Shown one piece after another: positions 20,624 through 60,371 of a DNA stretch of 64,000 bases. This DNA comes from Deltaproteobacteria bacterium. Lineage in GTDB: Bacteria > CALINM01. Position numbers and translations under genes: made by a program. Position 1 is the stretch's first letter. Each line of letters begins with the position of its first letter. The DNA is taken from contig JBBIPZ010000007.1 in the NCBI GenBank assembly GCA_037442505.1, positions 3,758 through 67,757 on the forward strand, written 5' to 3'. The notes under the pieces are model-generated. The model was given only the letters and a program-made list of their open reading frames with translations, did no database searches and was not told where the DNA came from.

Positions 20624-20678
20624 TCTGTGTGTAATTTATTAATATGTCTCTTGTTTTAATTAAACACAGGAGGCAGAG

Positions 20679-30456: not shown

Positions 30457-30478
30457 AGATATAAATTGGAGGTTATTT

Positions 30479-31090: not shown

Positions 31091-31156
31091 AACAAATATT
31101 ACTTGAAATTATTATACATTTATTTGACAATGGATTTATAAAAGTTAGGAGGACTT

Positions 31157-32383: not shown

Positions 32384-32392
32384 CTTTTCTTA

Positions 32393-32425
32393 AAGAGGAC
32401 GTGAAATATCGTCCTCTCTTTTACT
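32393..32425 (+). terminator. Intrinsic terminator after the OmpA-like gene
   Basis: AAGAGGACG-tgaaatat-CGTCCTCT followed by a CTTTTACT T-rich tail. Confidence 0.5.
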
Positions 32426-32438
32426 CATTAACTTAAAA

Positions 32439-33314: not shown

Positions 33315-33423
33315 AAAATAGTTTAGGGTTGTCTTTATTCTCAACATAGAGAGCTTTTAAAAAGTTCTCTTAATCTTAAGTTTCTCCACTGGTTACAAAA
33401 AAAACAAAACATCATTTTATTGT

Positions 33424-33452
33424 TGACAAGATATTTTTTATTATGTATTATT
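33424..33452 (+). promoter_or_regulatory. Near-consensus sigma70-like promoter (TTGACA-N17-TATTAT)
   Basis: TTGACA at 33424-33429, 17-nt spacer, TATTAT at 33447-33452. Confidence 0.35.
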
Positions 33453-33458
33453 TAACCA

Positions 33459-33507
33459 TACAATATTTCCCCCCCCAAAGGAAGGCATAGCCTTCCTATT
33501 TTTTTTC
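33459..33507 (+). ncRNA. Candidate sRNA or attenuator of about 50 nt (C8 tract plus terminator hairpin)
   Basis: Bounded by the promoter above and the GGAAGGC-ata-GCCTTCC hairpin with its T8 run (33481-33507). Confidence 0.25.
33478..33507 (+). terminator. Intrinsic terminator hairpin
   Basis: Perfect 7-bp GC-rich stem GGAAGGC/GCCTTCC, 3-nt loop, then TATTTTTTTT. Confidence 0.55.
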
Positions 33508-33600
33508 AAACATTTTTATAAAATCATCAGGTTGACAATTTTGCAAAAATGTTGTTTATTTATCATAAAGTAGAAGTAATATATAACAGTGAGGTAAAGT

Positions 33601-33996
33601 ATGGAAAAGATACTTGTAAGAACCACCAGAAGATTTGAGATTGTTGATTTAACAAGTCATGTTATGTCTATTGTATCAAAAAGTAGCATAGCTGACGGAT
33701 TATGTGTTGTGTTTTGTCCGCATACAACAGCTGCAGTTGCCGTAAACGAAAATGCAGATCCTACTGTAAAGCAAGATATCATATCAAAATTGGCTGAGTT
33801 GGTTCCGCAAAATGGAAACTATAGACATTTAGAAAAAAACTCTGATGCACATATCAAAAACGTTCTTGTTGGTCCTTCTTTAACTTTTATAGTAGAAAAC
33901 GGTAAGATCGAGTTAGGAACCTGGCAGGGTATATTTTTTATAGAAAGTGATGGACCAAGAAATCGAGAAGTGTGGGTAAAGGTTGTAGGAAAGTAG
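33601..33996 (+). CDS. YjbQ/UPF0047 family protein (secondary thiamine-phosphate synthase-like)
   Basis: 131 aa; the family pattern (TSHVMSIV...GLCVVFCPHTTAAVAVNE...GTWQGIFF) is recognisable. Confidence 0.7.
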   Translation: MEKILVRTTRRFEIVDLTSHVMSIVSKSSIADGLCVVFCPHTTAAVAVNENADPTVKQDIISKLAELVPQNGNYRHLEKNSDAHIKNVLVGPSLTFIVENGKIELGTWQGIFFIESDGPRNREVWVKVVGK

Positions 33997-34018
33997 CCAA
34001 CATCTAAGAAAGGAGAAA

Positions 34019-34462
34019 TTGATGGATCTAAAACAACAGCTTGAGCAAGAAATGAAAGAGGCTTTAAAGGCGAGAGATACTTTTAAGCTTAACGTTATAC
34101 GCTTTCTTTTAGCCCAGATAAAAAATAAAGAAATTGATTTGAGAAAACCTCTTAGCAATGAAGATATTTATAAAATAATACAGACACTTGTTAAACAGCG
34201 AAAAGAAAGTATCTCATTCTCTGAAAAGGCTGGCAGGACCGACCTTGTTGAAAAGGAGAAGGCAGAATTGAGTTTATTAGAAGCTTATCTTCCTAAGTCT
34301 TTGACAGAAGAAGAGATTAAAACAATCATAACAGATGTTATAAAAGAACTAAACGCTACTCAAAAAGATTTTGGTAAAGTGATGAAGGCACTAATGCCTA
34401 AAATTGCTGGTAGGGCAGATGGTGCAAAAGTAAATGAGCTTGTAAAAAAGCTTCTTGCTTAA
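34019..34462 (+). CDS. GatB/YqeY-domain protein
   Basis: 147 aa, YqeY-like pattern (LKEALKARD...YLP). Sits at the classic position upstream of dnaG. Confidence 0.8.
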   Translation: MMDLKQQLEQEMKEALKARDTFKLNVIRFLLAQIKNKEIDLRKPLSNEDIYKIIQTLVKQRKESISFSEKAGRTDLVEKEKAELSLLEAYLPKSLTEEEIKTIITDVIKELNATQKDFGKVMKALMPKIAGRADGAKVNELVKKLLA

Positions 34463-34486
34463 TTATTGTTTTTAAAAACTTCTTAA

Positions 34487-36217
34487 ATGAGATATTCTCG
34501 CACTGCTATAAGAGAGCTATTTAACATAGTTGATTACGTTTCTCGTTACGTTAATCTTAAAAAAAGGGGTAAGAACTATGTTGGGCTCTGTCCGTTTCAT
34601 CAAGAAAAGACACCTTCTTTTTCTGTCAGTGAAGATAAGCAGATATTTCATTGTTTTGGGTGTGGTATAGGGGGTGATTTAGTTCAGTTTCTAACAAGTT
34701 ATCTGAAGACCGATATATACGATGTGTTGACCCTTTTAGAGAACGAAAGAGGTGTTAAATTAATCGAAAGAGACAAAGATTATGAAAAACGTCAAAACAC
34801 TATAAATAAAATTTTAGCAATCAATAAAAAAGCTCTCGGTTTTTTTGTGAATAATCTTTTTAAAACAATAGATGGAGGAGATGCTCTCAAGTATCTGAAT
34901 AAAAGGGGTATAAATCTTAATACCGTTAAAAAGTTCCAGTTAGGTTTTGGTGGAAAAAGATGGGACGCTTTGGCTAACGAACTATTTAGAGCTGGTTTTA
35001 AAGAAGAAGAGATAGCAAAATCTGGTCTGGTAGTTTTTAACCAGACAGGTCGTCGAGATTTTTTTAGAAACAGATTGATTTTTCCAATTATTAATCAAAA
35101 AGGTGATATTATAGCATTTGGAGGAAGGGCGTTAGATGATAGTTTGCCAAAATATATAAATTCACCAGAAAGTGCGGTGTTTTCAAAAAGAAAGAATTTA
35201 TACGGTATAAATGTTGCTAAAGAAAACATAGTGTTAGATAAGACGGTTTTAATTGTTGAAGGTTACATTGATTGCATTTCTATGCATGAAGCAGGTTATG
35301 AAAATACTGTTGCAACGTTGGGAACGGCATTAACTGAGGAGCAGATTAAATACTTAAAAGGTTTTGCTGAACATTTCTATCTGATTTATGATGGAGATGA
35401 GGCAGGCAATAAGGCTGCCATTAAAGCCGTTGAGAGTTTTTTAAATTTAGGAATATCTCCTAATGTGGTAACATTACCAGCTGGCGAAGATCCTGATAGT
35501 CTTATTACGAGTGGAAAAATAGATGTTTTAGATGAAGCTGTTTCTAATTCTAAAAAAGGTATTGACTTTTTGGTGTCATTGTATAAAAATAAATACTCAC
35601 TCCAGACTTCTGAAGGCTTGAGAAGTTTTATTTATTCCTTAGGTGCGCACGTGCGAAATATCGAAAATCCAATTGAGAAAGAGATTATTTTGAGAGAAAT
35701 CTCGGAGATAACAGGTATTAAAGCTGAAAAAATTTCTCAAGTTTTTATCCCCGGCAATGCTGTAAAACATCTGCAGATAAACAAAGAGACAAATGAAGTT
35801 TCCTATGCAGACACAATCGTATCTTTCCTATTGAATAAACCAGATTACAATGATTATATTGATAATGACGTTTTATCAGAATTACCTGAAGATTATAAAG
35901 AAGTAATAAACAAGGTAGTTAAGGCGGATAGACATGATGAACTTTCAGAAAATGCGAAAAAATTATACTCTAAATTGGCTATATTGAACGTTGATAATCA
36001 GCAAGTAAATGAAGATGCATTTTTTGACACAATCAGGTTTATCAAACGAAAAAAGATTAAAGAAGAAAAAGAGAAAATAAACGAGCTGATAAAGGCTGAA
36101 GAAAGTGGTGCTTCACCGGATTTTAAGAAAATATTTATGTTGCAAGAAGAGAAAAAGAAACTAACACAGCTTGAACAGAGACTTTTAAAAAGGAGTAATA
36201 TAGGTTATGAGGTCTAA
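34487..36217 (+). CDS. dnaG: DNA primase
   Basis: Zinc ribbon [13 protein letters not shown]...CFGCG and a TOPRIM domain (EGYIDCIS...YDGDEAG). Confidence 0.9.
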
Positions 36218-37925
36218 AAAAAGTATCAGGGAAGAAGTTGCCGTTGAGGAGATGCTTGCCAAAGGCAAAAAAAAGGGTTTTTTAACTTATGACGAATTAA
36301 ATGACATGATTCCTGAAGATTTTAATACTGAAAATATCGATGAAGTTATATCAATCTTTGATGAGATGGAAATACCTCTCGTTGATGGTATTCAAAGTGT
36401 TCCTTCTACGCGTATTTATGAAGAAGAGGAACATGAAGAGTTTGACGAGCTCGAAGATGAACTTAAAAAGGTGAGTGATCCAGTAAGGCTTTATCTAAAA
36501 GAGATGGGGTCTGTTAATCTGCTTGATCGTGAAGGCGAGATCGAGTTAGCTAAAAAAATTGAAGAGGGAAATGACAGTATTATTCGCGCAATAATTTCTT
36601 ATGTGCCTGTTTTTGAAGAATTTTTAAGTTATGGCAAAAAGCTGGATGACCCTGAATTTGACATAAGCGAAATTACAAAAGAAGTTGAGGAAGATACTTA
36701 CGAAGATGAAGAGAGAGAGTTAACAATTGTCAGCACCCTAAAAGAATTTTTCGATAATTTGAATAAGAAGTATGCTGAGCTAAGAAAACTCAAATCAAAT
36801 AAGAACGCCAGAAACGATAAAAAGATAAAAAAGGTTGAAGACGAAATTGTTCAGATTATTAAAAGCATTAGTATTAATGAAAGTTTAATTGATAAGTTCA
36901 GGACAAAGATGCAATATGATTACGATGAAAATTTTGGAAATATAATTAAAAATATTGTTTCAGACGTGCAAGAAAAGCTTGAATTATCATACAAAAAGGC
37001 GGAAGAGATCGTTTCATTGCTATTGTCAAATGAGAATGTGTCTCCTAAAAAAGTTGGTTTAACAAAAGAAAAACTTACTAAGATAGAAAAAATTGTAAAG
37101 GCAAAGGCGACTGTATTAGCTAAAAATGAAAAAAAATTGGATATATCTGAGAAGAGACTGGCAGAACTGTTAAATCAATTAAAAGAGGGTGATAGGAAAA
37201 AGAGAGATGCAAAAAATCAGTTAGTTAACGCTAACCTTCGCTTGGTGGTGAGTATTGCAAAAAAATATACAAACAGAGGTTTGCAGTTTCTGGATCTGAT
37301 ACAGGAAGGCAATATTGGGTTAATGAAGGCGGTTGATAAGTTTGAGTACAAAAGGGGATATAAGTTTAGTACCTATGCAACATGGTGGATCAGGCAGGCG
37401 ATAACAAGGGCAATAGCCGATCAGGCAAGGACTATAAGAATTCCTGTTCATATGATCGAAACTATCAATAAGCTTATCAGGGAGTCAAGGGCTCTTGTTC
37501 AGGAGTTAGGCAGGGAACCAAATGCAGAAGAGATTGCCGAAAGGACTGAACTGCCCGTTGAAAAGGTAAGAAAGATTTTAAAAATTGCGAAAGAGCCTAT
37601 CTCTCTTGAAACACCTATTGGAGAAGAAGAAGACAGTCATTTAGGAGATTTTATTGAAGACAAAAAGACTTTATCGCCTGTAGAAGCCGTAGTACAAAGC
37701 AATTTACAAGATGTTGTTGCAAATGTTTTATCAACATTAACTTCACGTGAGGAAAAGGTTATAAGACTAAGATTTGGTATTGGCGAAAAATATGATCACA
37801 CTCTTGAAGAAGTAGGTCAGGCTTTTAACGTCACAAGAGAAAGGATCAGGCAGATAGAAGGTAAGGCTTTGAGGAAATTGCGTCATCCTATCAGAGCGAA
37901 GAAACTTAAGAGTTTTGTCGAATAA
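36207..37925 (+). CDS. rpoD: RNA polymerase sigma-70 factor RpoD
   Basis: Regions 1.1-4 present ([38 protein letters not shown]) with an acidic non-conserved insert. Confidence 0.95.
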
Positions 37926-37937
37926 AATCAGAGGAGG

Positions 37938-38495
37938 GTGGTTATGGAAATTTCTGTTTACTACAACAATTTGAATTCAAGTGATGCAATCAAAAGTTAT
38001 GTTGAAAACAAGATTGGCAAAGTTAAAAAGTATTTAGATGAGCCTATCAATGCTCAGGTGACACTGTCAGTTGAGAAACTTAATCACATCGTAAAAGTAA
38101 ATTTGAATGCACATGGTTATGTTATTCATGTTGAAGAGAAGGATACTAATCTTTATTCTGCAATTGATTTAGTTGCAGACACATTAGAAAGAAAAATCAA
38201 AAAGTATTTAGAAAGAATAAAAAAAGATAAAAATAATAAGAAAAAATCTGCAGAAAAAACAATTTTAGGAAAGGAAGAGGTGTTTTCTCTTTCAGAAGAA
38301 GCCTCCGAAGAGAAGAAAATAATCAAAGTGAAAAATTATGAAATCAAAATGATGGACACAGAAGAAGCAGCTATGCAAATGGATCTATTAAATAGGGATT
38401 TTCTTGTTTACATAAGTAACGAATCAGATGCAGTAAGCGTAATTTACAAGAGAAAAGATGGTAATTATGGTTTGATAGAGGCTAAGGTAAAGTGA
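37938..38495 (+). CDS. hpf: Ribosome hibernation-promoting factor, long form
   Basis: N-terminal RaiA/HPF fold motifs (LDEPINAQVTLSVEK) plus a C-terminal dimerisation extension; 185 aa. Confidence 0.85.
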   Translation: MVMEISVYYNNLNSSDAIKSYVENKIGKVKKYLDEPINAQVTLSVEKLNHIVKVNLNAHGYVIHVEEKDTNLYSAIDLVADTLERKIKKYLERIKKDKNNKKKSAEKTILGKEEVFSLSEEASEEKKIIKVKNYEIKMMDTEEAAMQMDLLNRDFLVYISNESDAVSVIYKRKDGNYGLIEAKVK

Positions 38496-38531
38496 TAAAA
38501 ATACAAAAAAACGTTTTTAAATTTTACGAAG

Positions 38532-38561
38532 ATACCCCCTCCACAAGAGGGGGTATTTTAT
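38532..38561 (+). terminator. Intrinsic terminator after hpf
   Basis: Perfect 10-bp stem ATACCCCCTC-cacaa-GAGGGGGTAT followed by TTTTA. Confidence 0.6.
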
Positions 38562-38571
38562 ATTAAGGTCT

Positions 38572-39423
38572 ATGGATTTTTTTCTGATATCTGGAGTTTC
38601 TGGCTCTGGCAAGACAGTCTTTCTAAAGGCACTCGAAGATTCAGGTTTTTTTTGCGTGGATAACCTGCCTATTCCTTTATTAATTGATTTTCTTGAAGTA
38701 ATGCGTTCATCAGAAGAATTAACAAAAGTGGCGGTTGTAATAGATATTAGAGAAAAAAGTTTTTTAAAACAAACAACAAATCTGATAGAAAAGATTCAAA
38801 GCTTACCTTATGTTAATCTAAAAATTGTTTTTCTTGATGCAAGGGATGAGATTCTGGAAAGAAGGTATAATGAGACACGAAGAAAACATCCCATCGATAT
38901 CTACAATTTAGAGCAAAGCTTTGAAGAAGAGCGCAAGCAACTAAATGTATTTAAGGAAAAGGCAGACTTTATTATCGATACAAGTAGCTACAATAACTAT
39001 GATTTAAGAAAGAAAGCGCTAGAAATTGCCTCAGGCAAAATACGAAAATCCAGAGTATCTATAAAAATTACCAGTTTTGGATACAAGTTTGGGGTCCCAA
39101 GTGATGTAGATATAATGTTTGATATGAGGTTTATAGCCAATCCTTATTATATACCAAGTTTAAAAGATAAAACGGGCAAGGATTTTGAAGTAAAAAAATT
39201 TATAAAATCGGACCGCGTTTCTGTTGAGTTTATAAAAATGGCGAGGAAACTGCTTTTATTCATAATAGAAAATTTTGAAAAACAGGGAAAAAACTTTATA
39301 TCAATTGCATTTGGATGTACTGGTGGCAGACACCGTTCTGTTTATATGGCAGAGGTGTTTTATAAAATAATCCGCAATAAATTTCCTGACACACATATCT
39401 TACACAGAGATATAGGAAGGTAA
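38572..39423 (+). CDS. rapZ: RNase adapter protein RapZ (YvcJ/YhbJ, P-loop)
   Basis: MDFFLISGVSGSGKT Walker A and the family's C-terminal GCTGGRHRS motif. Confidence 0.85.
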   Translation: MDFFLISGVSGSGKTVFLKALEDSGFFCVDNLPIPLLIDFLEVMRSSEELTKVAVVIDIREKSFLKQTTNLIEKIQSLPYVNLKIVFLDARDEILERRYNETRRKHPIDIYNLEQSFEEERKQLNVFKEKADFIIDTSSYNNYDLRKKALEIASGKIRKSRVSIKITSFGYKFGVPSDVDIMFDMRFIANPYYIPSLKDKTGKDFEVKKFIKSDRVSVEFIKMARKLLLFIIENFEKQGKNFISIAFGCTGGRHRSVYMAEVFYKIIRNKFPDTHILHRDIGR

Positions 39424-39489
39424 CAATTTAACGTTCCCCTTTTTTTTGTTTTACTTGTTAAAACAAAATATGGGTTACAAACTGAGTCT

Positions 39490-39511
39490 ATTTTTGCTAT
39501 AATGATAATTT
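39490..39511 (+). promoter_or_regulatory. gyrA promoter with extended -10 (TGcTATAAT)
   Basis: TATAAT preceded by TGC. A weak -35 TTACAA lies 17 nt upstream. SD AAGGAGG follows. Confidence 0.4.
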
Positions 39512-39533
39512 GAATTTTTCAAGGAGGAGTTAA

Positions 39534-42005
39534 TTGGATAAGCTTAGTTTCGCACAAAACGAGATAAAAGTTAATATCGAAGACGAAGTTAAACAATCGT
39601 ACTTAGATTATGCGATGAGTGTTATAGTGGGTAGAGCATTACCTGATGCGCGTGATGGTCTAAAACCTGTACATAGAAGGATTTTGTATGCAATGTACGA
39701 CATGGGCAACGAGTGGAATAAACCTTACAAAAAATCAGCCCGAATAGTTGGAGATGTTATAGGTAAGTATCACCCACATGGCGATGCTGCTGTATATGAT
39801 GCAATTGTCAGGATGGCACAAGATTTTTCTTTGAGAATGCCATTGGTGGACGGGCAGGGAAACTTTGGTTCTATTGACGGCGATCCACCAGCAGCAATGC
39901 GTTATACTGAAATTAGAATGAAGCAGCTTGCTGGTGAACTTTTAGCAGATATAGATAAAGATACGGTTGATTTTATTCCAAACTATGATGGTTCTTTATC
40001 CGAACCAGTTGTTTTGCCAGCAAAGTTGCCTAACCTGCTAATAAATGGTTCTTCAGGTATTGCAGTAGGTATGGCGACAAACATTCCGACTCACAATTTA
40101 AGAGAATGCATAAATGCTGTCATTTATATGATAGACAATCCCGATTGTGAAATTGAAGATATTATTAGAATTATACCGGGTCCAGATTTTCCAACCGGTG
40201 CATATATTCACGGAAGGGACGAGATTGTCAAGGCTTATAAGACGGGAAAAGGCATAATTAGGATACGAGGCAAGGCAGAAGAAGAGTTGTTAAAGGGTGA
40301 TAAGCACGCAATTGTAATCACTGAAATACCTTATATGGTAAACAAAGCGGAAATGATAAAGAATATAGCTGAGCTTGTCAGGGATAAAAAATTAGAAGGT
40401 ATTTCAGAAATAAGAGATGAATCTGATAAAGATGGAATAAGGGTTGTAATAGAGTTAAAAAGGGATGCAAATGGACAGGTGTTACTTAACAATTTGTATA
40501 AATTAACAAGGTTAGAGGAATCTTTTGCTATAAACATGGTGGCGATAGTAAAAGGTCAGCCTCGCTTGCTTAACTTAAAAGAAATTCTGGAAATATTCAT
40601 TTCACATAGAAAAGAAGTGGTCATACGTAGAACAAAATTTGAACTTGCGGATGCGAGAAAAAGGGCACATATTTTAGAAGGACTTAAGAAGGCGATTGAT
40701 AACTTAGACCTCACAATTAAACTAATTAGAGAGTCAAAGTCACCAAAAGAGGCTAAAGAGTCTTTGATCCTTAACCTTGATATAACTGACGTACAGGCAC
40801 AAGCTATTATAGATATGAAGCTGGCAAGACTTACAGGGCTTGAGAGAGAAAAGATAGTCGAAGAGTTTATAAATATTATGAAGCTTATAGATGAATTGGA
40901 GTCTATTTTAAGAGAAGAAAGAAAGGTTTTTGATATTATCAAGAAAGAGTTAGAAGAGATAAAAAATAAGTATGGCGATGAAAGAAGAACAGAAATCGTT
41001 TCTTCTGGTGTAGATATTAACAAGGAAGACCTTATCGAAAGAGAAGACGTTGTAATCACACTTACTCATAAGGGCTTTATAAAAAGAACCCCGGTAACCG
41101 AATACAGCACACAGAAAAGAGGTGGTAAAGGTAAAACAGCAATAAATTTAAGAGAAAAAGATTTTATAATAGATCTCTTTATTTCTTCAACTCACGATTA
41201 TGTTCTGGCATTTACTTCTTTAGGCCGTATGTATTCTATAAAGGCTTATGAGTTTCCGGAGGCTGGCAGGAATGCCTATGGAAAAATTATTACTAACTTT
41301 TTCCAGTTGAAAGAAAACGAAAAAGTTACAAACTTAATAGCTGTCAGTGATTTTGACGTTGATAAAGACCTGTTTTTTGCAACTGAAAAGGGTGTTGTAA
41401 AAAGAACACAGTTGAGTTTTTTTAAGAACATCAGAAAAACGGGTATCAACGCTATTAACCTGCCAGAAGATGATTTTCTCATATCTGCAAATATCGTTGA
41501 TAGTGAAGACCATGTGATACTTTCTTCACGAAAAGGCAAAAGTATAAGATTTCCTATTAGTGATGTTAGAAGGGTAGGAAGGGCAGCGTATGGTGTTACA
41601 GGAATGAGTTTAGAGAAGGACGATAAGGTGGTGGCAATGGATGTGATTAAAGAAAAAACGGGAAGTTTATTAACAGTTACTACCTTGGGTTATGGCAAAC
41701 AAACAGAAATTAGCGAGTATCGTTTACAAAGTAGAGGCGGCAAAGGTATATTTACCATTAAGCTTAGCCAGAAAATTGGGGAAGTGCTGGGTGTCTTAAA
41801 AACCAATCCAGATGATGAAGTGCTTTTGATTTCAAGTTCGGGCAATATGATAAGGCTAGCCGTAAAAAATATTCCTGAATATTCGAGACAGAGTCAGGGT
41901 GTAAGGCTAATTAATCTTGCAGAAGGTGAGCAGATTGTAGCAGTTGCAAAATTTGTAGAAAAGGAGAATGGAGATGAACAAGAGCCAGAAAGTACAATAC
42001 TATAA
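39534..42005 (+). CDS. gyrA: DNA gyrase subunit A (TTG start)
   Basis: [17 protein letters not shown]...GLKPVHRR, active-site Tyr region, C-terminal beta-pinwheel repeats. 823 aa. No gyrB lies adjacent. Confidence 0.95.
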
Positions 42006-42933
42006 GTATCTTTTAATCGTTTTTTCGATATTATTGTTGTTTGGATGTGCGGAGAGAAAAGCAAAATCAAATTACAAGGTGGCTGAGGAGTTGTTCAAAG
42101 GTGGTAGCTATAAGGATGCTGCAACAAAGTATATAGAGGTTATCAAATATGAAAAAGATATTCCGGAAGTTGAGGATTCTTATTACAAGTTAGGAATTAT
42201 CTATTCAAAGTATCTCGATGATCCAGCTTCTGCAATCTTTTATTTAGAAGAACTGATTAAGCGATTTCCAAAGGCTAATAAGATGGCTCAAGCAAGGAAG
42301 GAGATTGGTTATAGTTATCTTTATAAATTAAATAAGCCGGACAAGGCAGTTATCGAGTTTGAAACAATCGAAAAAAACTTTCCATCTGTTAGCTTTCTTG
42401 ACGAGGTAGTTTATTTAAAAGGACAAGCATATCTTGCTCAGAAAAAGTTTGACCTGGCTGAAAAAACTTACGGTAACTTTACTGTAGTATTTAAAAACTC
42501 AAAATATTCAGAAGAAGTGGAATATAAATTAGGCTTGATAAAATTAAATCTCGGCAAAGATAAAGAGGCGAATGATCTTTTAAGACAGTTTATAGAAAAA
42601 TATCCTCAATCTTCTTATATACTACTTGCTAAGTTTGACTTAGGCAATTCATACGAAAATTTGGGAGATTTAAAAAAGGCTTTAGAAGTATACAAGAGTA
42701 TCGGTGGTGATTATCCAAATCAAGAAGCTTTACATACCAAGATTTCGAAGTTAGAAGAAAGATTAAAGAAAAAATCTAAGGCAGCTATTACAAGGACACC
42801 AGCATCTATTAAAAAGGCGAGAACCAATGCAGCTACCAGGAAGGTTCAGCCTAAAAAGAGTGCAGAGAAAAATAATACAAAAAAGCGTGCAAAGAAGAAT
42901 AATACAAAAAAGACGTCAAAAAAGAAAAAGTGA
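41968..42933 (+). CDS. TPR-repeat lipoprotein with a lysine-rich C-terminal tail
   Basis: Lipobox LLFGC, several TPR-like repeats, and a C-terminal KKxxxKK tail. Overlaps the gyrA 3' end; an alternative start is at 41974. Confidence 0.55.
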
Positions 42934-43346
42934 AAATTACAGTCATTACTTGTGGACGAGAAAAAGAAAAAGATTTTAAAGAGTATGAAGAAGATCTGAA
43001 AAAGAGAATTTCACCTTTTGCAAAACTTTTTTTGATATACGTCACGAAGGAAGCAGATTTTCAAAAATATATACCAATAGATAGTAATTTTTTCTATCTA
43101 CTTGATGCTAAAGGTAAAGAAGTTGATTCAAACGAGTTTTCAAAGCTTTTGGATAAAAGTGAAATAACTTTTCTTATTGGACCTCCGGATGGCTTTAGCC
43201 AGACATTTAAAGAAAAATTTAAAGATAGTGCATTGCCATTATCACTTTCTCGTCTAACCTTTCCTCATCGTCTTTGCAAGCTAATATTGTTAGAGCAGAT
43301 ATATAGAGGATTTTGTATCCAGAAAAATCTTCCTTATGCAAAATAA
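42930..43346 (+). CDS. rlmH: 23S rRNA (pseudouridine1915-N3)-methyltransferase RlmH (SPOUT)
   Basis: [16 protein letters not shown]... with the family's C-terminal motif. GTG start. Confidence 0.75.
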   Translation: MKITVITCGREKEKDFKEYEEDLKKRISPFAKLFLIYVTKEADFQKYIPIDSNFFYLLDAKGKEVDSNEFSKLLDKSEITFLIGPPDGFSQTFKEKFKDSALPLSLSRLTFPHRLCKLILLEQIYRGFCIQKNLPYAK

Positions 43347-43479
43347 AATTATTGGAAATGATTTAAAATTTTCTATCAGTTTAATAACTTACCGCTATGT
43401 TGCCATGGATGTATTCCAGAGTAAGATACCTTTTAGAAAAATATCAAGCTGGAGAAGTTTAATCGTTGTTTTTTATCTT

Positions 43480-44316
43480 TTATAAATTTTGTTTTATTGC
43501 AATCCCAAGTAAAACTCGCATTTTCTTTTCATTAAGTATAGATAAAGCATTGTTGAAAATCTTGGCTGCGTCTCTATTTTTAAAAATTGGGTTCAAAAAT
43601 GCCTTTGTTTGAAGTAGTTTATTATAAAAGTTTATTGAATTTTCTGAATCATCTTCTAAATGGGTAACCTTAAAGTTAAAGCTATTCAGTATCTTGACAA
43701 AAGTAGCAAAACTACACAACTGGCTTTCCATCTCATTATCACCCCATGGCAAGGGTAGAGAGATTTTAAAAGTTTCATCTGATAAAAACCATTCGTGGAA
43801 CACAATTTTCCCGTTATCTTTTAACACCCTTGATATCTCTGATATCAAACTGTTTTTATCTAAAATATTCATATTTACATGCTGGAGCCACACTATCTCG
43901 AACGTGTTGCTTTTTAAAGGGCATAAAATTGCGTCTCCGTTTACAAAAAAAAGCCTGGTTTTATCAATCTTGCAAAGTTGAGATAATTTTTTCCCTGTCA
44001 AGCTGTATTCATGAGATAGGTCAAGATTAACCACCGCAACATTAAATTTGTTGACAAGGAAACGAGCAACCCCTCCAATACCACCACCTAATTCTAATAC
44101 GTGTTCATAACCTGTGAAAGCTGCCATACGTGAAAGTTTTTCAGTTGCTTTGAGTCCGCCTGCATGAATCTGGTCAAATCTATTTAAGATTTCCGTTGTA
44201 ATATTTTCAATTTTTTGTGATTTTAGTAACTTTTGATAATCTTCAAACAGCGTTGAATTGTTAGACCGGATATTTACCATTTGCTTAATAATAAAAAAAT
44301 CAGAATATAAAGTCAA
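43480..44316 (-). CDS. Class I SAM-dependent methyltransferase
   Basis: Motif I LELGGGIGGVARFL and a post-I acidic residue. Confidence 0.65.
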   Translation of the reverse strand: MTLYSDFFIIKQMVNIRSNNSTLFEDYQKLLKSQKIENITTEILNRFDQIHAGGLKATEKLSRMAAFTGYEHVLELGGGIGGVARFLVNKFNVAVVNLDLSHEYSLTGKKLSQLCKIDKTRLFFVNGDAILCPLKSNTFEIVWLQHVNMNILDKNSLISEISRVLKDNGKIVFHEWFLSDETFKISLPLPWGDNEMESQLCSFATFVKILNSFNFKVTHLEDDSENSINFYNKLLQTKAFLNPIFKNRDAAKIFNNALSILNEKKMRVLLGIAIKQNL

Positions 44317-44389
44317 AGAAAAGAATTCTTAGAACTTTTTTAGATTTTGACACATCCTTTTTTTATGCTAATTTTACCTTAGATTAAAA

Positions 44390-45687
44390 ATGCTTCACCA
44401 AACTCTTGTGTATGTTTTGTTTTTTTCTCAGGCTTCTCCGGACTTATTTATGAGTTGCTCTGGACTAATTATCTAAAGATGTTCCTTGGGCATTCTGCTT
44501 ATGCTCAGTCTTTAGTTTTATGTATTTTTATGTGAGGAAATGGCTTTAGGCTCATATCTGGCTGTTTTTTTTCTAAAAAAATCAAAAAACCACTTTTAAT
44601 ATATGGAATAATAGAGTTCGTAATTGGAGCTTTTGCTCTTGTTTTTCACCTAATTTTCAAGACAATGTTAGATTTTTCATATGATATTGCAATTCCGTCA
44701 ATCGATAACAGTTTTTGGATTGTAGTTTATAAAATAACCATGTCATCGTTAATAATTTTTCTACAAACAGTGTTTTTGGGAATGAAGTTTCCACTATTGA
44801 GTTGTATTATCTACACAAAAGGTTATGGAGAAAGGGCAGTGGGTTTCACCTATGCTGCAAATACTATTGGGGCTATTTTAGGCGTAATCTTTGCTGTTCA
44901 TATAGGTTTTACTTTTCTTGGCCTAAAAAATTTGTTGTTTCTTGGTATTATACTTGACATATCTTTAGGGGTAATTCTTTTTTTCAATATACAGCGAGAA
45001 AAGAAGCCAGTTTTTTCACCCAAATTAATTTCAGTTTCAAGTTGTTCTTTAATTATTATCAGCTTTACGTTTTTAAATCTTGATAAATATAAACTTGCAT
45101 CTGGTGTTTGCAGAGAAGGTGTGATATTTACCACAAAGGATTACCATTTAAATTACTATAAAGATGGTAAGATAGCGAGTATCAGTGTTGTTGGAGATGG
45201 ACAATATGTTAGTATAAGGACGAATGGTAAATCTGATTCTGCGATTGCATTGAGTGAGGCAATTTTTCCTTCTGCTGATGAATTTACATCATCTTTAGCT
45301 GCATTGATCCCATACTTTTACAAACAAGATGCAAAAAATGTAGCAGTTATTGGCTTGGGAACTGGTCTAACATCACATGTTGCCTTACTTAATCCTAAAG
45401 TATCAAAAGTTGATAGCGATTTTCATCCAATTATTGAAAGAAATGGTCCTAAGTTAAGATTTTATGGAGCAGTGGCAAGGGAGATTTTAGAACTAAATAC
45501 GGGCAGTTTGCCAATTCTGGAACTGTTATTTAATGATAGCGAAAGTATTGTTAATGATATAACTCATACTCCATATTATCAGAAATCTTTCCAAGTTTCG
45601 TTAGCCACCAAGGCAAGAGACTTTATTTTAAAAGGTAACCCCCCTTCGATTTGCCAGCAAAACTGTTTACAGATATACAAAAAATAG
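44390..45687 (+). pseudogene. Disrupted gene for a spermidine-synthase-like membrane protein (N-terminal TM domain plus a degenerate SpeE-like domain)
   Basis: MLHQTLVYVLFF (frame 2), then FSGFSGLIYELLW...SLVLCIFM (frame 0, after the T7 run at 44419-44425), an in-frame TGA at 44532-44534, then EEMALGSYLA (frame 1), then KKPLLIYGIIEFVIGAFAL (frame 0, after the T8/A7 runs at 44564-44580), continuing into the 340-aa ORF. Confidence 0.45.
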
Positions 45688-45733
45688 TTAATTTTATCGA
45701 AAATAAAGAACTGATGAGTGGTCATTTCGGGTT

Positions 45734-46000
45734 ATGTTTAATCTTTTTTCTATCTTAATTCCAAATTTACCAGAGCAAGATGTTATGTTTATTTTAGATA
45801 AAATTGAAAAAAGTAAGAACTATCAAGAACTAAATTTTTTAGAAAAATTATGGTTAAAACTTTATAGGGCTATTAAGCAACGTGATTATAAGTCTATGAC
45901 GGTTATAGTAATGCAACTGCTGGAAAAAGATAAAGCCATGCCGCCTATAGATATAGAGTACCTGATGGCAGTATATATACTGGGAAACATTGTCTTATAA
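45734..46000 (+). CDS. Hypothetical small protein (88 aa)
   Basis: ORF only. Confidence 0.25.
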   Translation: MFNLFSILIPNLPEQDVMFILDKIEKSKNYQELNFLEKLWLKLYRAIKQRDYKSMTVIVMQLLEKDKAMPPIDIEYLMAVYILGNIVL

Positions 46001-46180
46001 CGAAAAGCGGAAGTAAAAAATTATTTGCAAGCCTCAGGCCGGATTATTTCTTTAACTGAAAATAATATCATTTTTAAATATCTCAAAAGCTATTGCGAGT
46101 GATACCAATACGAGATCCTTGAAAAGACAAAATCTTAAACTGTTGATTTTTAGTTTTAGAAGTATTAATTTAAATATGGT

Positions 46181-46924
46181 ATGTCACAAATACTTCTGTT
46201 TGAAAGTGTTTCAAAAACATACAATTTAGGCATTGGGAAGAAAAGGCTCCCTGTGCTTTTTGATGTCTCTTTTTCTGTTAATAAAGGCGAAGTTTTTGGA
46301 TTTGTTGGTCCTAATGGCGCTGGAAAATCGACAACCATAAAACTCATTTTAAATCTAATCTTTCCCGATAAAGGCAGGATTGAGCTATTTGGGAAACATC
46401 CGGGCAATGTGGAAATAAAAAGAAAGATTGGTTATCTACCAGAAATACCCTATTACTATGACTATCTTACTCCTTATGAACTTGCCTGGTTTTCTGGAAA
46501 AGTGGCTGGATTGGATGATGTAAATATAAAAAAGAAGGCAGAACATCTTTTTGGCTATTTTCTCTTTGAGCCTCATACAACAAAAAAGATTAAAGAACTG
46601 TCTAAAGGAAATGCTCAAAAAGCCGGTATCATTGCAACACTCATACACGATCCAGAATTTTTAATTCTCGATGAGCCAATGACGGGTTTGGATCCTATTG
46701 GCAGGAAGCTTGTAGGAGATATGATTTTAAAATTTAAGAATGAGGGAAAAACGATTTTTCTGACATCTCATATACTATCTGATGTGGAGCGTTTTTGTGA
46801 CACTATTGCGATAATCTTTGAAGGTAAAATAAAGCTTTTAGAGTCAAAAGAAGCACTTCTGAAAACAGGTAACAGTCTTGAAGATATATTTTGTGATGTA
46901 ATTGGACTTAAAGAGGTTAAATGA
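46181..46924 (+). CDS. ABC transporter ATP-binding protein (ABC-2 type)
   Basis: Walker A GPNGAGKST, signature LSKGNAQK, Walker B ILDEP. Confidence 0.85.
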   Translation: MSQILLFESVSKTYNLGIGKKRLPVLFDVSFSVNKGEVFGFVGPNGAGKSTTIKLILNLIFPDKGRIELFGKHPGNVEIKRKIGYLPEIPYYYDYLTPYELAWFSGKVAGLDDVNIKKKAEHLFGYFLFEPHTTKKIKELSKGNAQKAGIIATLIHDPEFLILDEPMTGLDPIGRKLVGDMILKFKNEGKTIFLTSHILSDVERFCDTIAIIFEGKIKLLESKEALLKTGNSLEDIFCDVIGLKEVK

Positions 46925-47736
46925 TGCTAAGTAGAGTTTATCCTTTCATTAAGATTACTGTTCTTGATGGGATAAGAAATAGGATTGTTATAGGTGTCAT
47001 TGCTTTATCAATTATATCTTGTTTGGCAAATATAGTGATAACAAATCTCGCGGCACAGGATGTGGGAAAGGTTGCAATAGATTTTGAATTGTCTACTTTT
47101 TCAATTATGGGGCTTTTTGTAATACTATTTGCCTGTGGCAATAGCCTCTATCGGGATATTGATAAAAAAACTGTCTCTTTAGCCATCAGCAGGGCAATTT
47201 CGAGAAAAGAGTATATTTTAGGTAGATTTGTTGGTTATCTGGTAACCTTAATTTTTGTTTCTTTCATATCTACCATCATAGGATTGATTACGCTTTATTT
47301 AATAAAATTTCTTCACCCTAAACATTTCGAACAGACTTTTGGAACTGTAATTTTGGCTCATCTGTTTGCATTTATTGGTTTTTCTATGCTTTTAACTGTT
47401 TTGATACTATTTTCTTCCTTAACTACAAGTTCTTATACGGCAATATTATTAACGATAATGATCTATTTTATTGGCAATTCTATTGGTGAGTTGAGAGATT
47501 TTGCAGAGTCTTTAGCTTCTGTTGTTGCGGGATTCCCGGAGTCATTTAAGGTGATGTTAAGGATTGTTCATTTCATTGTGCCAGATTTAGGAAAATTTGA
47601 TCTAAAAGTGTTTGCAGCAAATGTCTTGCCTGTAGATATCAGTTTTATTGTATTTTCGATAGCTTATGCAGTTGTTTACTGTATGATTTTACTGCTACTT
47701 TCGATGAAAGCCTTTGAAAAGCGAGAGTTTATTTAA
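46921..47736 (+). CDS. ABC-2 family permease
   Basis: 271 aa, six TM helices. ATGA overlap with the ATPase gene. Confidence 0.7.
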   Translation: MMLSRVYPFIKITVLDGIRNRIVIGVIALSIISCLANIVITNLAAQDVGKVAIDFELSTFSIMGLFVILFACGNSLYRDIDKKTVSLAISRAISRKEYILGRFVGYLVTLIFVSFISTIIGLITLYLIKFLHPKHFEQTFGTVILAHLFAFIGFSMLLTVLILFSSLTTSSYTAILLTIMIYFIGNSIGELRDFAESLASVVAGFPESFKVMLRIVHFIVPDLGKFDLKVFAANVLPVDISFIVFSIAYAVVYCMILLLLSMKAFEKREFI

Positions 47737-47740
47737 TGCT

Positions 47741-48592
47741 ATGTTAAAATTGAGAGAAAAGTTAATCTGGCTTTTAATCATCATATTATTGCCTTTGAAC
47801 TTTTTTTTTCTTGAAACATCAAGGATAAACAAACCACATTTAAAAGAAGAGAAACTGTTTTTGCCTGAGCCTTTTCTTAAAATTTTTGCAGGTGAGTTTA
47901 ATGGGATTATTGCAGACTTTTTAATAATAAATCTTTCGTCCTATTATGGCGGTATAATAATGGAAAAAAATGAAGCGGTAGAAAGGGAGTTTGATTATAT
48001 GTATAAAGTGTTGAAGGCTGCATCTACACTGGATCCTTATTATTTTGATACCTATTACTTCACACAAACAATAATAGGCTGGGATGCAAGAAAGCCAGAA
48101 ATGGCAATAGAACTCTTAAAAATCGGGACAGAGAAAAGGGCAAAGGATTGGCTGTTACCATACTGGATAGGTTTTGATTATTACTATTTCTTAAAAAACA
48201 AAAAATTAGCAGCCCACTACTTTAAAGAAGCAGCAAGTAGACCCGGCGCAACAGATTTATTGGTTTCAATGACTGCTATAGCTGGCTATGAAGGCGGAGA
48301 GACAGAGATGGCTATACTTTTCCTCGAAGATGCGATAACAAGGGCTGATGATGAATTTAAAAGGAGAAAATTTTTAACAAGACTTGATGCTTTAAAGAAG
48401 ATATTGTTTTTAGAAAAAGCTGTAAAGGCTTATGAAGCTAAATACAGAAAAAAGCCAGAACATTTACAGGAACTTGTTATAAAAAATATAATAACTAAAA
48501 TCCCTCGAGATCCCTATGGTGGTGAGTTTTATATTGACAACGATGGGAAAATTAAAACCACAAGTAACTTACGTTTTGTAAGAAAAAAGTAA
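47741..48592 (+). CDS. Membrane-anchored hypothetical protein with helical-repeat (TPR-like) features
   Basis: N-terminal TM helix (LIWLLIIILLPLNFFFL). No SD. The track offers an alternative TTG start at 47714. Confidence 0.35.
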   Translation: MLKLREKLIWLLIIILLPLNFFFLETSRINKPHLKEEKLFLPEPFLKIFAGEFNGIIADFLIINLSSYYGGIIMEKNEAVEREFDYMYKVLKAASTLDPYYFDTYYFTQTIIGWDARKPEMAIELLKIGTEKRAKDWLLPYWIGFDYYYFLKNKKLAAHYFKEAASRPGATDLLVSMTAIAGYEGGETEMAILFLEDAITRADDEFKRRKFLTRLDALKKILFLEKAVKAYEAKYRKKPEHLQELVIKNIITKIPRDPYGGEFYIDNDGKIKTTSNLRFVRKK

Positions 48593-49181
48593 TTTTCCTT
48601 AATCATATTAGCATATAAAAGGACAAAATATTTATCTTTTACTTTTGCCAAAGGAATTAAAAAACTAAATAAGTTTATTTTTTAGTTGCAATAACTAACA
48701 TTGCCTGTCCGGTAAAGCCTTTAATTTTTCCTATCAGAAATACTATGAATCCTAAGGGTAAAAGTAATCCCATTAATATCGGTTTTATTATTTTTTGTTT
48801 CTATAAAATTTTTCATTGATAGAATTATTTTTGTTTTTAATAAACAGACCTTGAATATAAGTCCCTATGCTTTCTGTGCATTTAATTATGGAAAGTGGTT
48901 CAAATTTGACATCCAACACTTTAAATTCTTCTGAATTTAATAAATAATTAATGCTTTTTTCGTTCCATCTTGTTAGATGATGAGGTGGGTAATCCCAAGG
49001 ACAGATTTGCATTTATATACCGAATTTTTAGGCTATTATAGCACAATATTGCATAGCAGGGGCAATTTTTTTATACAAAAACAACGTCAATATAGCTTTA
49101 CAAAAATTTACAGCTATTAATATTGAAAAAAATTTAGTGTGTGCTAATATTTAAATTAAAAAAAATTATGGGAGGCAAAAA

Positions 49182-50762
49182 ATGAAAAGGTTATTTTTAA
49201 TGTTGGTTCTTATACTTTTATTCTTTACCAACCATACCTCAGCAGCTAAGAAAATAGAAAAGGGAACTGCAGACAGCAAAGCTTGTTATCAGTGTCACGA
49301 TGAGATTAAGGCACTCAAAGAAGGTTCTAAACACGCGAAATTGGATTGTGGTCAATGTCACGGAAACTTATCTGAACACTTAGGGAATCCTGATACAAAA
49401 CCTTCAACAAATCTGGGACTTGATAACTGCGGCAGATGTCACAAAGACCAGTACGATTCATACTTTCAGGTAAATTATCATAAAAGAGCTAAGAAGGAAA
49501 AGGCAATCCCTGATGGTAGAGCACCACTGCTTGATAAGCTTCTTGCCGGTCATGGTTTTACAAAGGAGCATGCAGAGCCCAGAAGCCATCCCTTTATGTT
49601 AATTGACCATATCATTGTTGATAGAGCTTATGGTGGTAGATTCCAGTACAAAAACTGGGCTGATATAACAAAAACTGGTAAACCCTGGGATATCCTGATT
49701 GATACAAACAAGACAATTCCAGAATCTGCAAAAGCAGCAAATCCAACCTGCATTCAGTGCAAAACTTCTGATTTTGTAATGAAATGGGCATATTTAGGTG
49801 ATAAAAATCCAAAAGCAAAATGGGATAGAACATCAAATGTATTTGAAGTAATAAAGGATGCACAAAATCCAGTTGGTTGCATCCATTGTCATGATCCCCA
49901 TGCGGCAAAGGGAAGGGTAATAAGAGATGCCTTAATACGGGCGGTGCAAACATATGGAGATAGACCTTATAGTAAGAAAAATGACAAAAATGCTCTTGAT
50001 GTAAAAGAGTTCAGAGGCTATAGAAAGATTGGATTACTTAAGAAAAATGATTCAGTACTTATGTGTGCCCAGTGTCATGTGGAGTATGCCTGCAATCCTG
50101 GATTTGAGAAAGATGATTTTAACAAAAAGATAGGTTTTAATGACCAGAGAACCAATATATTCCCATGGAAGAATGTCTTTGATGTGCTTAAATTTTACGA
50201 TGAGATTAACTTTAGAGATTACAGACATCCAGTAACAGAGGCAAATCTGATTAAATTCCAACATCCTGAAACAGAGACGTTTTTTGACAGCAAACATGAA
50301 AGGGCAGGTGTAACCTGTGCTGATTGCCATATGGCAAAAACAAAAAATAAAGCTGGTAAAACTTATACATCACACTTTGTTGTAAGCCCGAGGGAAAATA
50401 TAAAAGGAACATGCCTCAAATGCCATAAAGACTGGACAGAGAAACAGGCAATATACACAATAGATAGCGTAAAAAACTATATAAAAGGAAAAATCAGAAA
50501 ATCTGAATACTGGTTGTCTCAGTTTATTGACAAGTTTGAAAAGGCAAAGAAGAAAGGTGTAAGCAAAGATGTGTTAAAAGAGGCAAGAAAACAGCATGAC
50601 ATAGCCCATGCTCACTGGGAATGGTGGACTGCAGAAAACTCCGATGGATTCCATAACCCTGACCAGGCAAGACAATCATTAGCAACATCTATCGAAGCTT
50701 CCAGGAAAGGAATAGAGATACTCGACAAGGCAATAAAGGAAAAGGTTATCACAGCCAAATAG
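49182..50762 (+). CDS. Octaheme cytochrome c nitrite reductase (TvNiR/ONR-like)
   Basis: Signal peptide. Eight heme motifs: CYQCH, CGQCH, CGRCH, CIQCK, CIHCH, CAQCH, CADCH, CLKCH. The fourth is a CXXCK, consistent with a Lys-ligated catalytic heme. SD GGGAGG. Confidence 0.8.
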   Translation: MKRLFLMLVLILLFFTNHTSAAKKIEKGTADSKACYQCHDEIKALKEGSKHAKLDCGQCHGNLSEHLGNPDTKPSTNLGLDNCGRCHKDQYDSYFQVNYHKRAKKEKAIPDGRAPLLDKLLAGHGFTKEHAEPRSHPFMLIDHIIVDRAYGGRFQYKNWADITKTGKPWDILIDTNKTIPESAKAANPTCIQCKTSDFVMKWAYLGDKNPKAKWDRTSNVFEVIKDAQNPVGCIHCHDPHAAKGRVIRDALIRAVQTYGDRPYSKKNDKNALDVKEFRGYRKIGLLKKNDSVLMCAQCHVEYACNPGFEKDDFNKKIGFNDQRTNIFPWKNVFDVLKFYDEINFRDYRHPVTEANLIKFQHPETETFFDSKHERAGVTCADCHMAKTKNKAGKTYTSHFVVSPRENIKGTCLKCHKDWTEKQAIYTIDSVKNYIKGKIRKSEYWLSQFIDKFEKAKKKGVSKDVLKEARKQHDIAHAHWEWWTAENSDGFHNPDQARQSLATSIEASRKGIEILDKAIKEKVITAK

Positions 50763-50774
50763 GCCATTAACTAA

Positions 50775-50805
50775 ATCTTGGGGGTGGTTAACCCATCCCC
50801 AAGAT
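50775..50805. terminator. GC-rich hairpin between the convergent nitrite reductase and radical SAM genes
   Basis: ATCTTGGGGGTGG-ttaa-CCCATCCCCAAGAT, an imperfect stem of about 12 bp. Confidence 0.4.
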
Positions 50806-50963
50806 CAAAATCGAAGCAAAAATACTTAACTAAAGAACGTGTGTTTGTACCGAACGAAACCGAGTGAAAGTGCAATAAATAACTTCTACTATCGAATCAA
50901 AGACTACAAAAGAAAATCAACAATGTAATTTATAGGTGTTGGGGAGCGAAATTGGATTTCAAG

Positions 50964-52496
50964 CTAATTTCTACAAACATCGTATTTTATCTGATTCATA
51001 GCTTTTGTTTTAGCCATTGAATGTTTATCAAAAATCTTCCTGAAATGATAGCCATAAATAGCAAAAGTAACTGCTAAAGATAGAAATTTTGGCTTTTTTA
51101 TAACAGACCAAGTAAGCAATTTCCAATAACTTAAGCTCCCCTTTTTTAAGATACCGAGAAGCAAAAGAGATTTAATAAAAGCAGTAAAAGATTCAAAACT
51201 ATAGTGAAACAGCTTAGGTTGTAATGGTTTATACTCGCTCAGAAACCTTTTGATGCGGTTGTATAAATATTTTGGATTGTATATTGTTTTTACAATTTTT
51301 TCATACCCATCAACTAACTTACTCATCTCCATCTTTGTTAAAATATTTGTTGAAAAATCAGTATTATCACCCGACATATATTTTAAAATTCGGTTCTCTT
51401 CTTTCATTTTTTTAAATAACTTTGTTCTAACAGGGGCGTTTAGTATCCCCACCATAGCAGTTACAATGCTTGATTTCTCAATAAAGTTTATCACTCTATC
51501 AAAGATATCGAGTGGATCATTATCAAATCCAACGATAAATCCAGCCATAACATCAAATCCGTAACTTTGTATCTTCCTGACACTTAAGAGCAAATCTCTA
51601 TTTTTATTCTGATTTTTGCTGCATTCTTCAAGACTTTCGTAATGAGGAGATTCTATGCCAACAAAAAGGTTTAAAAAATTGGCGGTAGCCATAAGCTTCA
51701 TCAACTCTTCATCATCAGCAAGGTTTATTGAAACCTGAGTTATAAAAGAAAAGGGGTATTTATTATTTTTTTGCCATTCGATAATTGCTGGTAGTATCTG
51801 ATCTTTTAATATTTTTTTATTGCTGATAAAGTTGTCATCTACAAAAAAAACACCACCTTGCCATCCTAAGTTATACAGTATGTCAAGTTCTTTTAATATC
51901 TGGCTACAACTTTTTGTTCTTGGTTTTCTACCAAAAAGTGCAGTTATATCACAAAAATCACATTCAAATGGACAGCCACGCGAAAACTGCACACACATAG
52001 ATGCATAGTCATTGAGATTAATCAGGTTATAAGATGGGATAGGACTTTTAGTTAAATCTGCCCAATCATCAGTAGAGTATAACGCTTTAGGCTCACCATT
52101 AGATAAATCACTGATAAACATTGGAATTGTAATTTCACCTTCATTTAAAACAAAATGGTCAACACCTTCAAAATCAGTGTAACGTGACGTAAATAAAGGC
52201 CCACCAGCAACAATTTTTTTATTGAAAGACTTTACCTTTTTAATAACTTCTCTAACTGATTTTTCCTGAACTGACATAGCACTTATAAATACATAATCTG
52301 CCCATTTTATCTGTTCATCACTTAGTTTAGTTACATTTAAATCAACCAATCTTTTCTCCCATTCATTTGGGAGTAACGATGCAACTGTAAGCAGTCCAAG
52401 AGGTGGAAAGCTTGCTTTCTTATTTACAAACTGAAGGGCGTATTTAAAGCTCCAGAAAGTTTCTGGATATTGTGGATAGACTAATAAAACTTTCAT
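50964..52496 (-). CDS. B12-binding-domain radical SAM protein with a DUF4070-like C-terminus
   Basis: N-terminal cobalamin-binding Rossmann-like region and CPFECDFCD (CxxxCxxC); 510 aa. Confidence 0.8.
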   Translation of the reverse strand: MKVLLVYPQYPETFWSFKYALQFVNKKASFPPLGLLTVASLLPNEWEKRLVDLNVTKLSDEQIKWADYVFISAMSVQEKSVREVIKKVKSFNKKIVAGGPLFTSRYTDFEGVDHFVLNEGEITIPMFISDLSNGEPKALYSTDDWADLTKSPIPSYNLINLNDYASMCVQFSRGCPFECDFCDITALFGRKPRTKSCSQILKELDILYNLGWQGGVFFVDDNFISNKKILKDQILPAIIEWQKNNKYPFSFITQVSINLADDEELMKLMATANFLNLFVGIESPHYESLEECSKNQNKNRDLLLSVRKIQSYGFDVMAGFIVGFDNDPLDIFDRVINFIEKSSIVTAMVGILNAPVRTKLFKKMKEENRILKYMSGDNTDFSTNILTKMEMSKLVDGYEKIVKTIYNPKYLYNRIKRFLSEYKPLQPKLFHYSFESFTAFIKSLLLLGILKKGSLSYWKLLTWSVIKKPKFLSLAVTFAIYGYHFRKIFDKHSMAKTKAMNQIKYDVCRN

Positions 52497-60223: not shown

Positions 60224-60298
60224 AACTTAAACCTCCTGCCAGCGATTAATTTACCTCAAAAATTTGAAGTAAATTACTTTGGAATTGTAAAAAAGAAG

Positions 60299-60371
<73 letters not shown>

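Follow-up and report, generated by a model that had tools for sequence, protein, structure and literature searches.

The DNA analysed here, referred to throughout as the window, is a stretch of 64,000 nucleotides of a metagenome-assembled contig (JBBIPZ010000007.1) from a deltaproteobacterium (assembly GCA_037442505.1). About 90% of it is covered by 54 intact long open reading frames (ORFs), and by far the largest gap between these, 1864 bp at 44317-46180, holds the locus under study; in a window so densely coded, a gap of this size indicates a disruption that exceeds chance. Translation of 44330-45760 in the three forward frames finds the pieces of one protein distributed between frames. The ATG at 44390 opens MLHQTLVYVLFF, the natural continuation of which, FSGFSGLIYELLWTNYLKMFLGHSAYAQSLVLCIFM, lies in a different frame and ends at a TGA; EEMALGSYLA is back in the first frame, that of the ATG; and KKPLLIYGIIEFVIGAFAL... 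is again in the second frame, where it continues into an ORF of 340 aa. A first-pass annotation, made from the letters of the window alone, had read these pieces as the membrane domain of a disrupted spermidine-synthase-like gene, and the frame-switched peptides that it listed (MLHQTLVYVLFF, FSGFSGLIYELLW...CIFM*, EEMALGSYLA and KKPLLIYGIIEFVIGAFAL) were reproduced by both three-frame translation and reconstruction of the protein. Elsewhere in the window there is no second copy (paralog) of the gene.

The features of the locus are as follows:

44390..46102, plus strand: remnant of the gene, very probably a pseudogene, with the original ATG and the original stop (TGA) as its ends (tblastn and DNA alignment with the intact ortholog of the close relative L088)
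44665..45687, plus strand: the longest ORF left, of 340 aa, with an internal Met as its start (a separate predicted protein, entry P0001 of the protein collection)
45734..46000, plus strand: ORF of 88 aa, derived from the C-terminal part of that gene (match to the L088 ortholog)

The first-pass annotation had closed the disrupted gene at 45687. It extends beyond that, to the original stop at 46100-46102, which the alignment with L088 shows to be still conserved in the window copy. The region of the 88-aa ORF is 93% identical to residues 860-982 of the L088 ortholog when the stretch past its terminal TAA is counted.

Intact orthologs in syntenic position

The first-pass annotation had proposed a comparison with orthologs in related genomes, and these were reached by an indirect route. 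A homolog search with the reconstructed protein, a minimal reconstruction of 432 aa in which three indels were corrected, missed the close orthologs and returned only the 340-aa ORF itself and distant relatives (≤39% identity) that are 600-700 aa or more in length. Alignment to these distant homologs shows that ~230 aa are missing from the membrane domain of the window copy, together with most of its catalytic domain. A scan of genome contigs gave 395 members of the family, the nearest at 48% identity, and the species of the window was absent from the matches. Some of the other genomes have the gene in duplicate, as with L001/L015 and L002/L027. Syntenic contigs were instead found through gyrA, which lies 2.4 kb upstream of the locus, by way of its 90%-identity cluster. 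Contigs found through the nrfA cluster gave only non-syntenic contexts, and the contig of L089, on which an 823-aa GyrA represents the 90%-identity gyrA cluster, stops short of the locus.

Two of the genomes carry the comparison. The closer, L088, is the Logan assembly of SRR24079451. In two blocks, 29529-44793 and 45413-48595, its DNA matches that of the window at 96.3-96.5% identity. In L088 the place of 44390-46102 is taken by an intact gene for a protein of 982 aa (14833-17781). The second, L083, at ~70-77% DNA identity, shares with its relatives an intact 980-aa gene in the same position (15414-18356 in L083). The gene order common to the window and L088 is gyrA, a TPR gene, an rlmH-like gene, a methyltransferase gene, the 982-aa gene position, an ABC ATPase gene, an ABC-2 permease gene and a gene for a protein of 283/292 aa. 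By tblastn, the 982-aa ortholog of L088 maps to frames 1, 3 and 2 over 44390-46102, and the remnant amounts to 1713 bp of an ancestral gene of 2949 bp, the length of the gene in L088.

Architecture of the ancestral protein and what is left of it

The product of the ancestral gene is an inner-membrane protein of 982 aa. Its N-terminal domain consists of two homologous, MFS-like halves with several helices each, and is joined to a domain of the spermidine-synthase fold and to a C-terminal extension of ~290 aa. The L088 ortholog matches the Pfam family Spermine_synth (PF01564) at residues 534-686 with 75.4 bits (cut-off 22.9) and the NCBIfam model NF037959, 'fused MFS/spermidine synthase', with 78.7 bits (cut-off 40); it differs from the latter in being about twice the length of the model, with the C-terminal extension, which has no Pfam family, as additional sequence. 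For the window copy, the 432-aa reconstruction gave zero matches in Pfam, Spermine_synth included, scored 26.7 bits on NF037959, under the 40-bit cut-off, and matched only the N-terminal membrane part of PRK03612 (E = 2.3e-11). The remnant still has recognisable N-terminal membrane helices of the NF037959 family, but it has no single reading frame and it falls outside the family on score, on the PF01564 domain and on a complete two-half membrane domain alike.

Comparison with SpeE drew on the model TIGR00417 and on the structures 2b2c, 1iy9 and 1inl. The catalytic domain of the ortholog aligns to these solved spermidine synthases (E = 2.6e-15 for 2b2c), but even the intact ortholog reaches only 86.4 bits on TIGR00417 against an equivalog cut-off of 249.55, and it has GLGTGL in place of GGGDGG and EPSNP in place of DSSDP (D-x-x-D-P). 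From general knowledge of these motifs, we take the changes to make an aminopropyltransferase role doubtful. With scores so far under the equivalog cut-off and with altered motifs, the function has to be called putative even for the intact protein of 980-982 aa, which is probably not a standard aminopropyltransferase. The region of the EPSNP motif has been lost from the window copy through a deletion. A literature search on membrane-fused spermidine synthases returned nothing relevant.

Nine lesions account for the whole difference in length

The lesions of the window copy were mapped base by base on a DNA alignment to the intact L088 allele. There are nine of them: four small frameshifting indels, one 10-bp deletion, two nonsense mutations and two large deletions. 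In the following list all are on the plus strand and all rest on the L088 alignment, with further evidence given in brackets.

Lesion 1, 44420..44426: T8 to T7, a -1 frameshift after codon 12
Lesion 2, 44533..44535: GGA to TGA, nonsense, at Gly49 of the conserved FMGGMALGS motif (Gly in all aligned homologs)
Lesion 3, 44536..44539: GGT to GGAA, a +1 frameshift
Lesion 4, 44564: GG to G, a -1 frameshift, the neighbouring T8 and A7 being unaltered
Lesion 5, 44788..44793: in-frame deletion of 681 bp (227 codons), junction TTTCCA (also protein alignments)
Lesion 6, 45413..45415: in-frame deletion of 543 bp (181 codons), with ATA microhomology (3 bp) at the junction
Lesion 7, 45637..45644: AAAACCCCC to AACCCCCC (A4C5 to A2C6), a net -1 frameshift
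Lesion 8, junction 45729..45730: deletion of 10 bp (AAAGATTAAC), frame shifted
Lesion 9, 45998..46000: GAA to TAA, nonsense, at Glu949

Together these give 681+543+10+1+1+1-1 = 1236 bp, which is exactly the 2949 bp of L088 minus the 1713 bp of the window; the catalogue is thus complete. Counting the 10-bp deletion, five indels shift the frame. Four lesions are packed into 145 bp at the 5' end, and both large deletions are in frame, for which the chance is ~1 in 9; neither pattern is statistically compelling.

The disruptions seen in the first-pass annotation were real features whose positions had been given one base low, the T7 run lying at 44420-44426 and the in-frame TGA, which is genuine, at 44533-44535. 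The other two homopolymers that it discussed are a T8 at 44565-44572 and an A7 at 44575-44581. Its frame change at the T7 run stands, since L088 has T8 there, and this is the only change of homopolymer length among the three N-terminal frame changes. The second frame change exists as well, but it falls just after the TGA, at 44536-44539, and not in the T4/T5 runs of the span to which it had been assigned; the third likewise exists, but it is the loss of a G at 44564, on the 5' side of the T8 run, and not a change in the T8/A7 runs themselves. What had been described as a compressed SpeE-like domain is the 543-bp in-frame deletion after ...VSKVD. The 681-bp deletion, the frameshifts at ~45637-45644 and 45729/45730 and the TAA at 45998-46000 are additional to that earlier list.

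The two large deletions fall in the membrane domain and in the catalytic domain. Lesion 5 is flanked by imperfect 15-bp direct repeats, GGGATGACGTTTCCA and GGAACGACTTTTCCA, which are identical at 12 of 15 positions with 6 bp exact at the junction, and which sit one in each of the homologous halves of the membrane domain; the residues lost, ~134-360 of the ortholog, comprise the last part of the first half and the bulk of the second. Lesion 6 takes residues ~571-751, which make up most of the Spermine_synth domain (TVEIE...DDAK...SEPSNPW...) and its catalytic core. The possibility that a catalytic domain, strongly diverged, follows ...VSKVD was dropped, as the comparison with L088 gives a clean 543-bp deletion followed by a well-conserved C-terminal extension.

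At 45129-45138 and 45950-45954 the window copy also has apparent compensated indel pairs relative to L088 (-2/+2 and -1/+1 within a few bases), each of which alters 2-3 residues and keeps the frame. These were left uncounted as lesions, clusters of substitutions being equally possible.

Relaxed constraint on the lineage of the window

With L083 as the outgroup, the amino-acid differences between the window and L088 could be polarised. The gene has 25 derived changes on the side of the window and 2 on that of L088 (25 of 27 polarisable changes; binomial p = 5.6e-6), as against 50 and 45 in 15 flanking genes (50 of 95; Fisher p = 1e-4 for the comparison with the gene). With the central segment excluded the counts are 12 and 0, and for the central segment alone they are 13 and 2. 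The excess of 25/27 over 50/95 on the lineage of the window points to relaxed constraint on this gene, and we regard this outgroup-polarised comparison of sequences as decisive on that point. Two of the replacements in the window fall at sites that are invariant in every aligned homolog, T to I in DGKTA and F/Y to C in SGV[FY]R; at a third such site, the leading G of FMGGMA, the window has a stop codon.

Pairwise dN/dS between the window and L088 gives a less marked signal. The remnants have values of 0.40 (N-terminal), 0.19 (central) and 0.46 (C-terminal), and the whole remnant has 0.25 against 0.145 for the flanks over 5676 codons (Fisher p = 0.053). It should be noted as a counterpoint that this is only modestly above the flanks, so that substitutions have contributed little to the decay, and the indels are rather numerous in relation to them. 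The neighbouring genes, those for the divergent SAM methyltransferase, the ABC ATPase, the ABC-2 permease and the 292-aa protein, are intact and, with dN/dS of 0.11-0.26, still under constraint.

The segment between the two large deletions, 44794-45412, stands apart. Its divergence from L088 is 9.4%, where the remainder of the remnant has ~3% and the mean is 3.5%; among 201 sliding windows no other is as diverged, although the contrast is not statistically compelling. The segment has dS of 0.26 and dN/dS of 0.19. Patches of comparable divergence occur at 51029-51728 and 36433-37332. The divergence of 44794-45412 probably reflects the recombination mosaic of these genomes, to judge from such patches, and it may inflate part of the asymmetry between the lineages.

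A methyltransferase remnant, nrfA and other observations in the window

Two features lie downstream of the locus:

48675-49012, minus strand: Methyltransf_23 remnant, the C-terminal ~115 aa of a 300-aa protein, in two frames (homology)
49182-50762: nrfA, cytochrome c552 nitrite reductase

The methyltransferase gene fragment that the first-pass annotation had seen ~3 kb downstream is real. Its 74-aa ORF (48788-49012, minus strand) matches Methyltransf_23 proteins: an exhaustive HMMER search found it 59% identical to residues ~186-249 of P0057 (E = 7e-18), and the minus-strand frame at 48675-48773 matches the C-terminus of the same 300-aa proteins. Pfam and a word-indexed protein search gave nothing for the 74-aa fragment. 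The remnant has lost the N-terminal ~185 aa, the SAM-binding fold included. Both the remnant and nrfA lie within 48596-50963, a block of 2.37 kb that L088 lacks, with 29 bp in its place; from this comparison the block would be a strain-specific insertion, deletion or relocation. In other relatives nrfA stands behind a pair made of a Tll0287-like histidine kinase and a response regulator, which is missing here.

Upstream of the locus, the TPR gene (41968-42933) has, in the lysine-rich stretch at its 3' end, a 25-bp imperfect tandem duplication relative to L088 (42854-42878), which alters the C-terminus of the protein (321 aa here, 326 aa in L088). The apparent non-coding gap of 437 bp at 20242-20678 contains an ORF of ~75 aa (MMVLGEIERNQTEILRVSLENFKGRDYIDLRIYYLDENGKEW...) with a good Shine-Dalgarno sequence, which is probably a small gene. 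Scans of the window for tRNAs and Rfam families found a tRNA-Phe at 60298-60371 and nothing else.

Discussion

The first-pass annotation had left two options for this locus, a genuine decaying pseudogene or localized sequencing errors at homopolymers. Our analysis favours the former: 44390-46102 is very probably a genuine, unprocessed pseudogene, the decayed ortholog of the 982-aa gene, with lesions that are known from one contig of a metagenome-assembled genome (MAG). The support comes from an intact ortholog at ~96.5% identity, the nine lesions, breaks of frame that are confined to the gene and amino-acid changes that are concentrated on one lineage. Three of the features by which a pseudogene is recognised, a homolog at the same position in a close relative, disabling lesions and relaxed constraint, are found here.

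Sequencing and assembly are the obvious alternative source of such breaks, as the contig is a metagenome assembly, and according to this reading the gene would be intact in the organism, the breaks being homopolymer miscalls and mis-joins in the MAG contig. Lesions 1 and 7 (T8 to T7 and A4C5 to A2C6) do alter the length of a homopolymer, and no independent assembly of the deleted allele was found by exact-protein look-up or in scans of JGI metagenomes: exact-protein look-ups of the 340-aa ORF, the ABC ATPase of the window and the NrfA of the window led to no other contig, and JGI metagenome scans with a 20-mer spanning the junction of the 543-bp deletion and with a degenerate pattern for YELLWTNYLKMFLGH returned nothing. 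However, the other seven of the nine lesions (two nonsense mutations, GG to G, T to AA and the deletions of 10, 681 and 543 bp) are not changes of homopolymer length, and the identity at the junctions of the large deletions, 6 bp and 3 bp, is too short for an assembler to collapse. The intact ORFs of the window carry 92 long homopolymers (A/T of at least 7, C/G of at least 6), and over the ~21 kb aligned to L088 no other gene has a frame-breaking 1-bp indel; five small indels fall inside the 1.7-kb remnant, and the other indels in those ~21 kb are intergenic except for the 25-bp repeat change in the TPR gene, the only other one within a gene. Errors, moreover, would not strike this gene selectively and so would not produce the lineage-specific excess of amino-acid changes. 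We therefore hold it very unlikely that the breaks are artefacts, and the option of localized homopolymer errors is not supported. Expression of the gene as it stands, by programmed ribosomal frameshifting and/or by recoding of TGA as Gly, is next to impossible. The TGA does replace a Gly codon, GGA in the ortholog, and the first frameshift does lie in a slippery-looking T run, but TGA terminates 12 of the 54 long ORFs of the window, each of the two orthologs has one continuous frame that lacks shift sites, with GGA at the position of the TGA, and no such rescue could deal with five changes of frame, a TAA stop and a missing catalytic core. The first-pass annotation, too, had judged recoding to be unlikely.

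A different reading would accept the deletions as real and see in them a live gene remodelled into a shorter functional membrane protein, consisting of the 340-aa ORF or of something longer, of which only the termini are decaying. That 681 and 543 are both multiples of 3, that the 340-aa ORF is uninterrupted and that dN/dS in the central segment is as low as 0.19 would all fit. Nevertheless, the 13 central changes on the side of the window, against 2 for L088, include the invariant sites (T to I in DGKTA, Y to C in SGVYR), and the low dN/dS goes together with a dS of 0.26, which fits an older or imported patch and not current constraint. The 340-aa ORF itself begins at an internal Met, ends out of frame, has neither the first membrane helices nor any of the catalytic core, and was found in no other assembly searched. 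We consider remodelling of this kind quite unlikely. There is an equally slim chance that the in-frame deletions came first, giving a shortened and catalytically dead membrane protein (the ~340-aa ORF) that was kept, or is still made, in a new role, or that T8 to T7 was a reversible off-switch that decay later fixed. A phase-variable homopolymer gene was also considered, given that T8/T7 differs between the strains, but it was rejected in view of eight further lesions, most of them irreversible.

On the preferred reading, that of a decaying pseudogene, all nine lesions were gained on the lineage of the window. A deletion between the short direct repeats of the duplicated membrane halves removed 681 bp, and one at a 3-bp microhomology excised 543 bp with the catalytic core; replication slippage or illegitimate recombination at repeats is the most likely origin of these large deletions, as suggested by the sequences of their junctions. 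The small indels and point mutations would have accumulated under neutrality. A full-length or catalytically competent product should then be impossible, and we infer that the function has been lost in this strain. Inactivation appears to be recent relative to the split from L088, because the outer remnants are still ~97% identical to the intact allele.

The pseudogene is of an ordinary and already-known kind, with nothing that differs in kind from bacterial pseudogenes formed by frameshift, nonsense mutation and deletion. It resembles these in having a syntenic intact ortholog in a close relative, multiple lesions that are mostly deletions and an acceleration on one lineage, and it is notable only for carrying nine lesions at ~97% identity outside the central segment. 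The likeness extends to known deletions between direct repeats, with the 681-bp deletion lying at imperfect 15-bp repeats and the 543-bp deletion at a microhomology of 3 bp.

For the annotation of this genome it follows that two predicted proteins which stand as separate entries in the protein collection searched, of 340 aa and of 88 aa, belong together and should be marked as a single pseudogene, 44390-46102. The locus also offers a fully mapped example of early gene decay between strains that are ~96.5% identical. For the family, a poorly understood one of large, membrane-fused, spermidine-synthase-like proteins, it would mean that at least one strain can do without such a protein, a strain in which the neighbouring genes, for a methyltransferase and an ABC-2 transporter, are still under selection.
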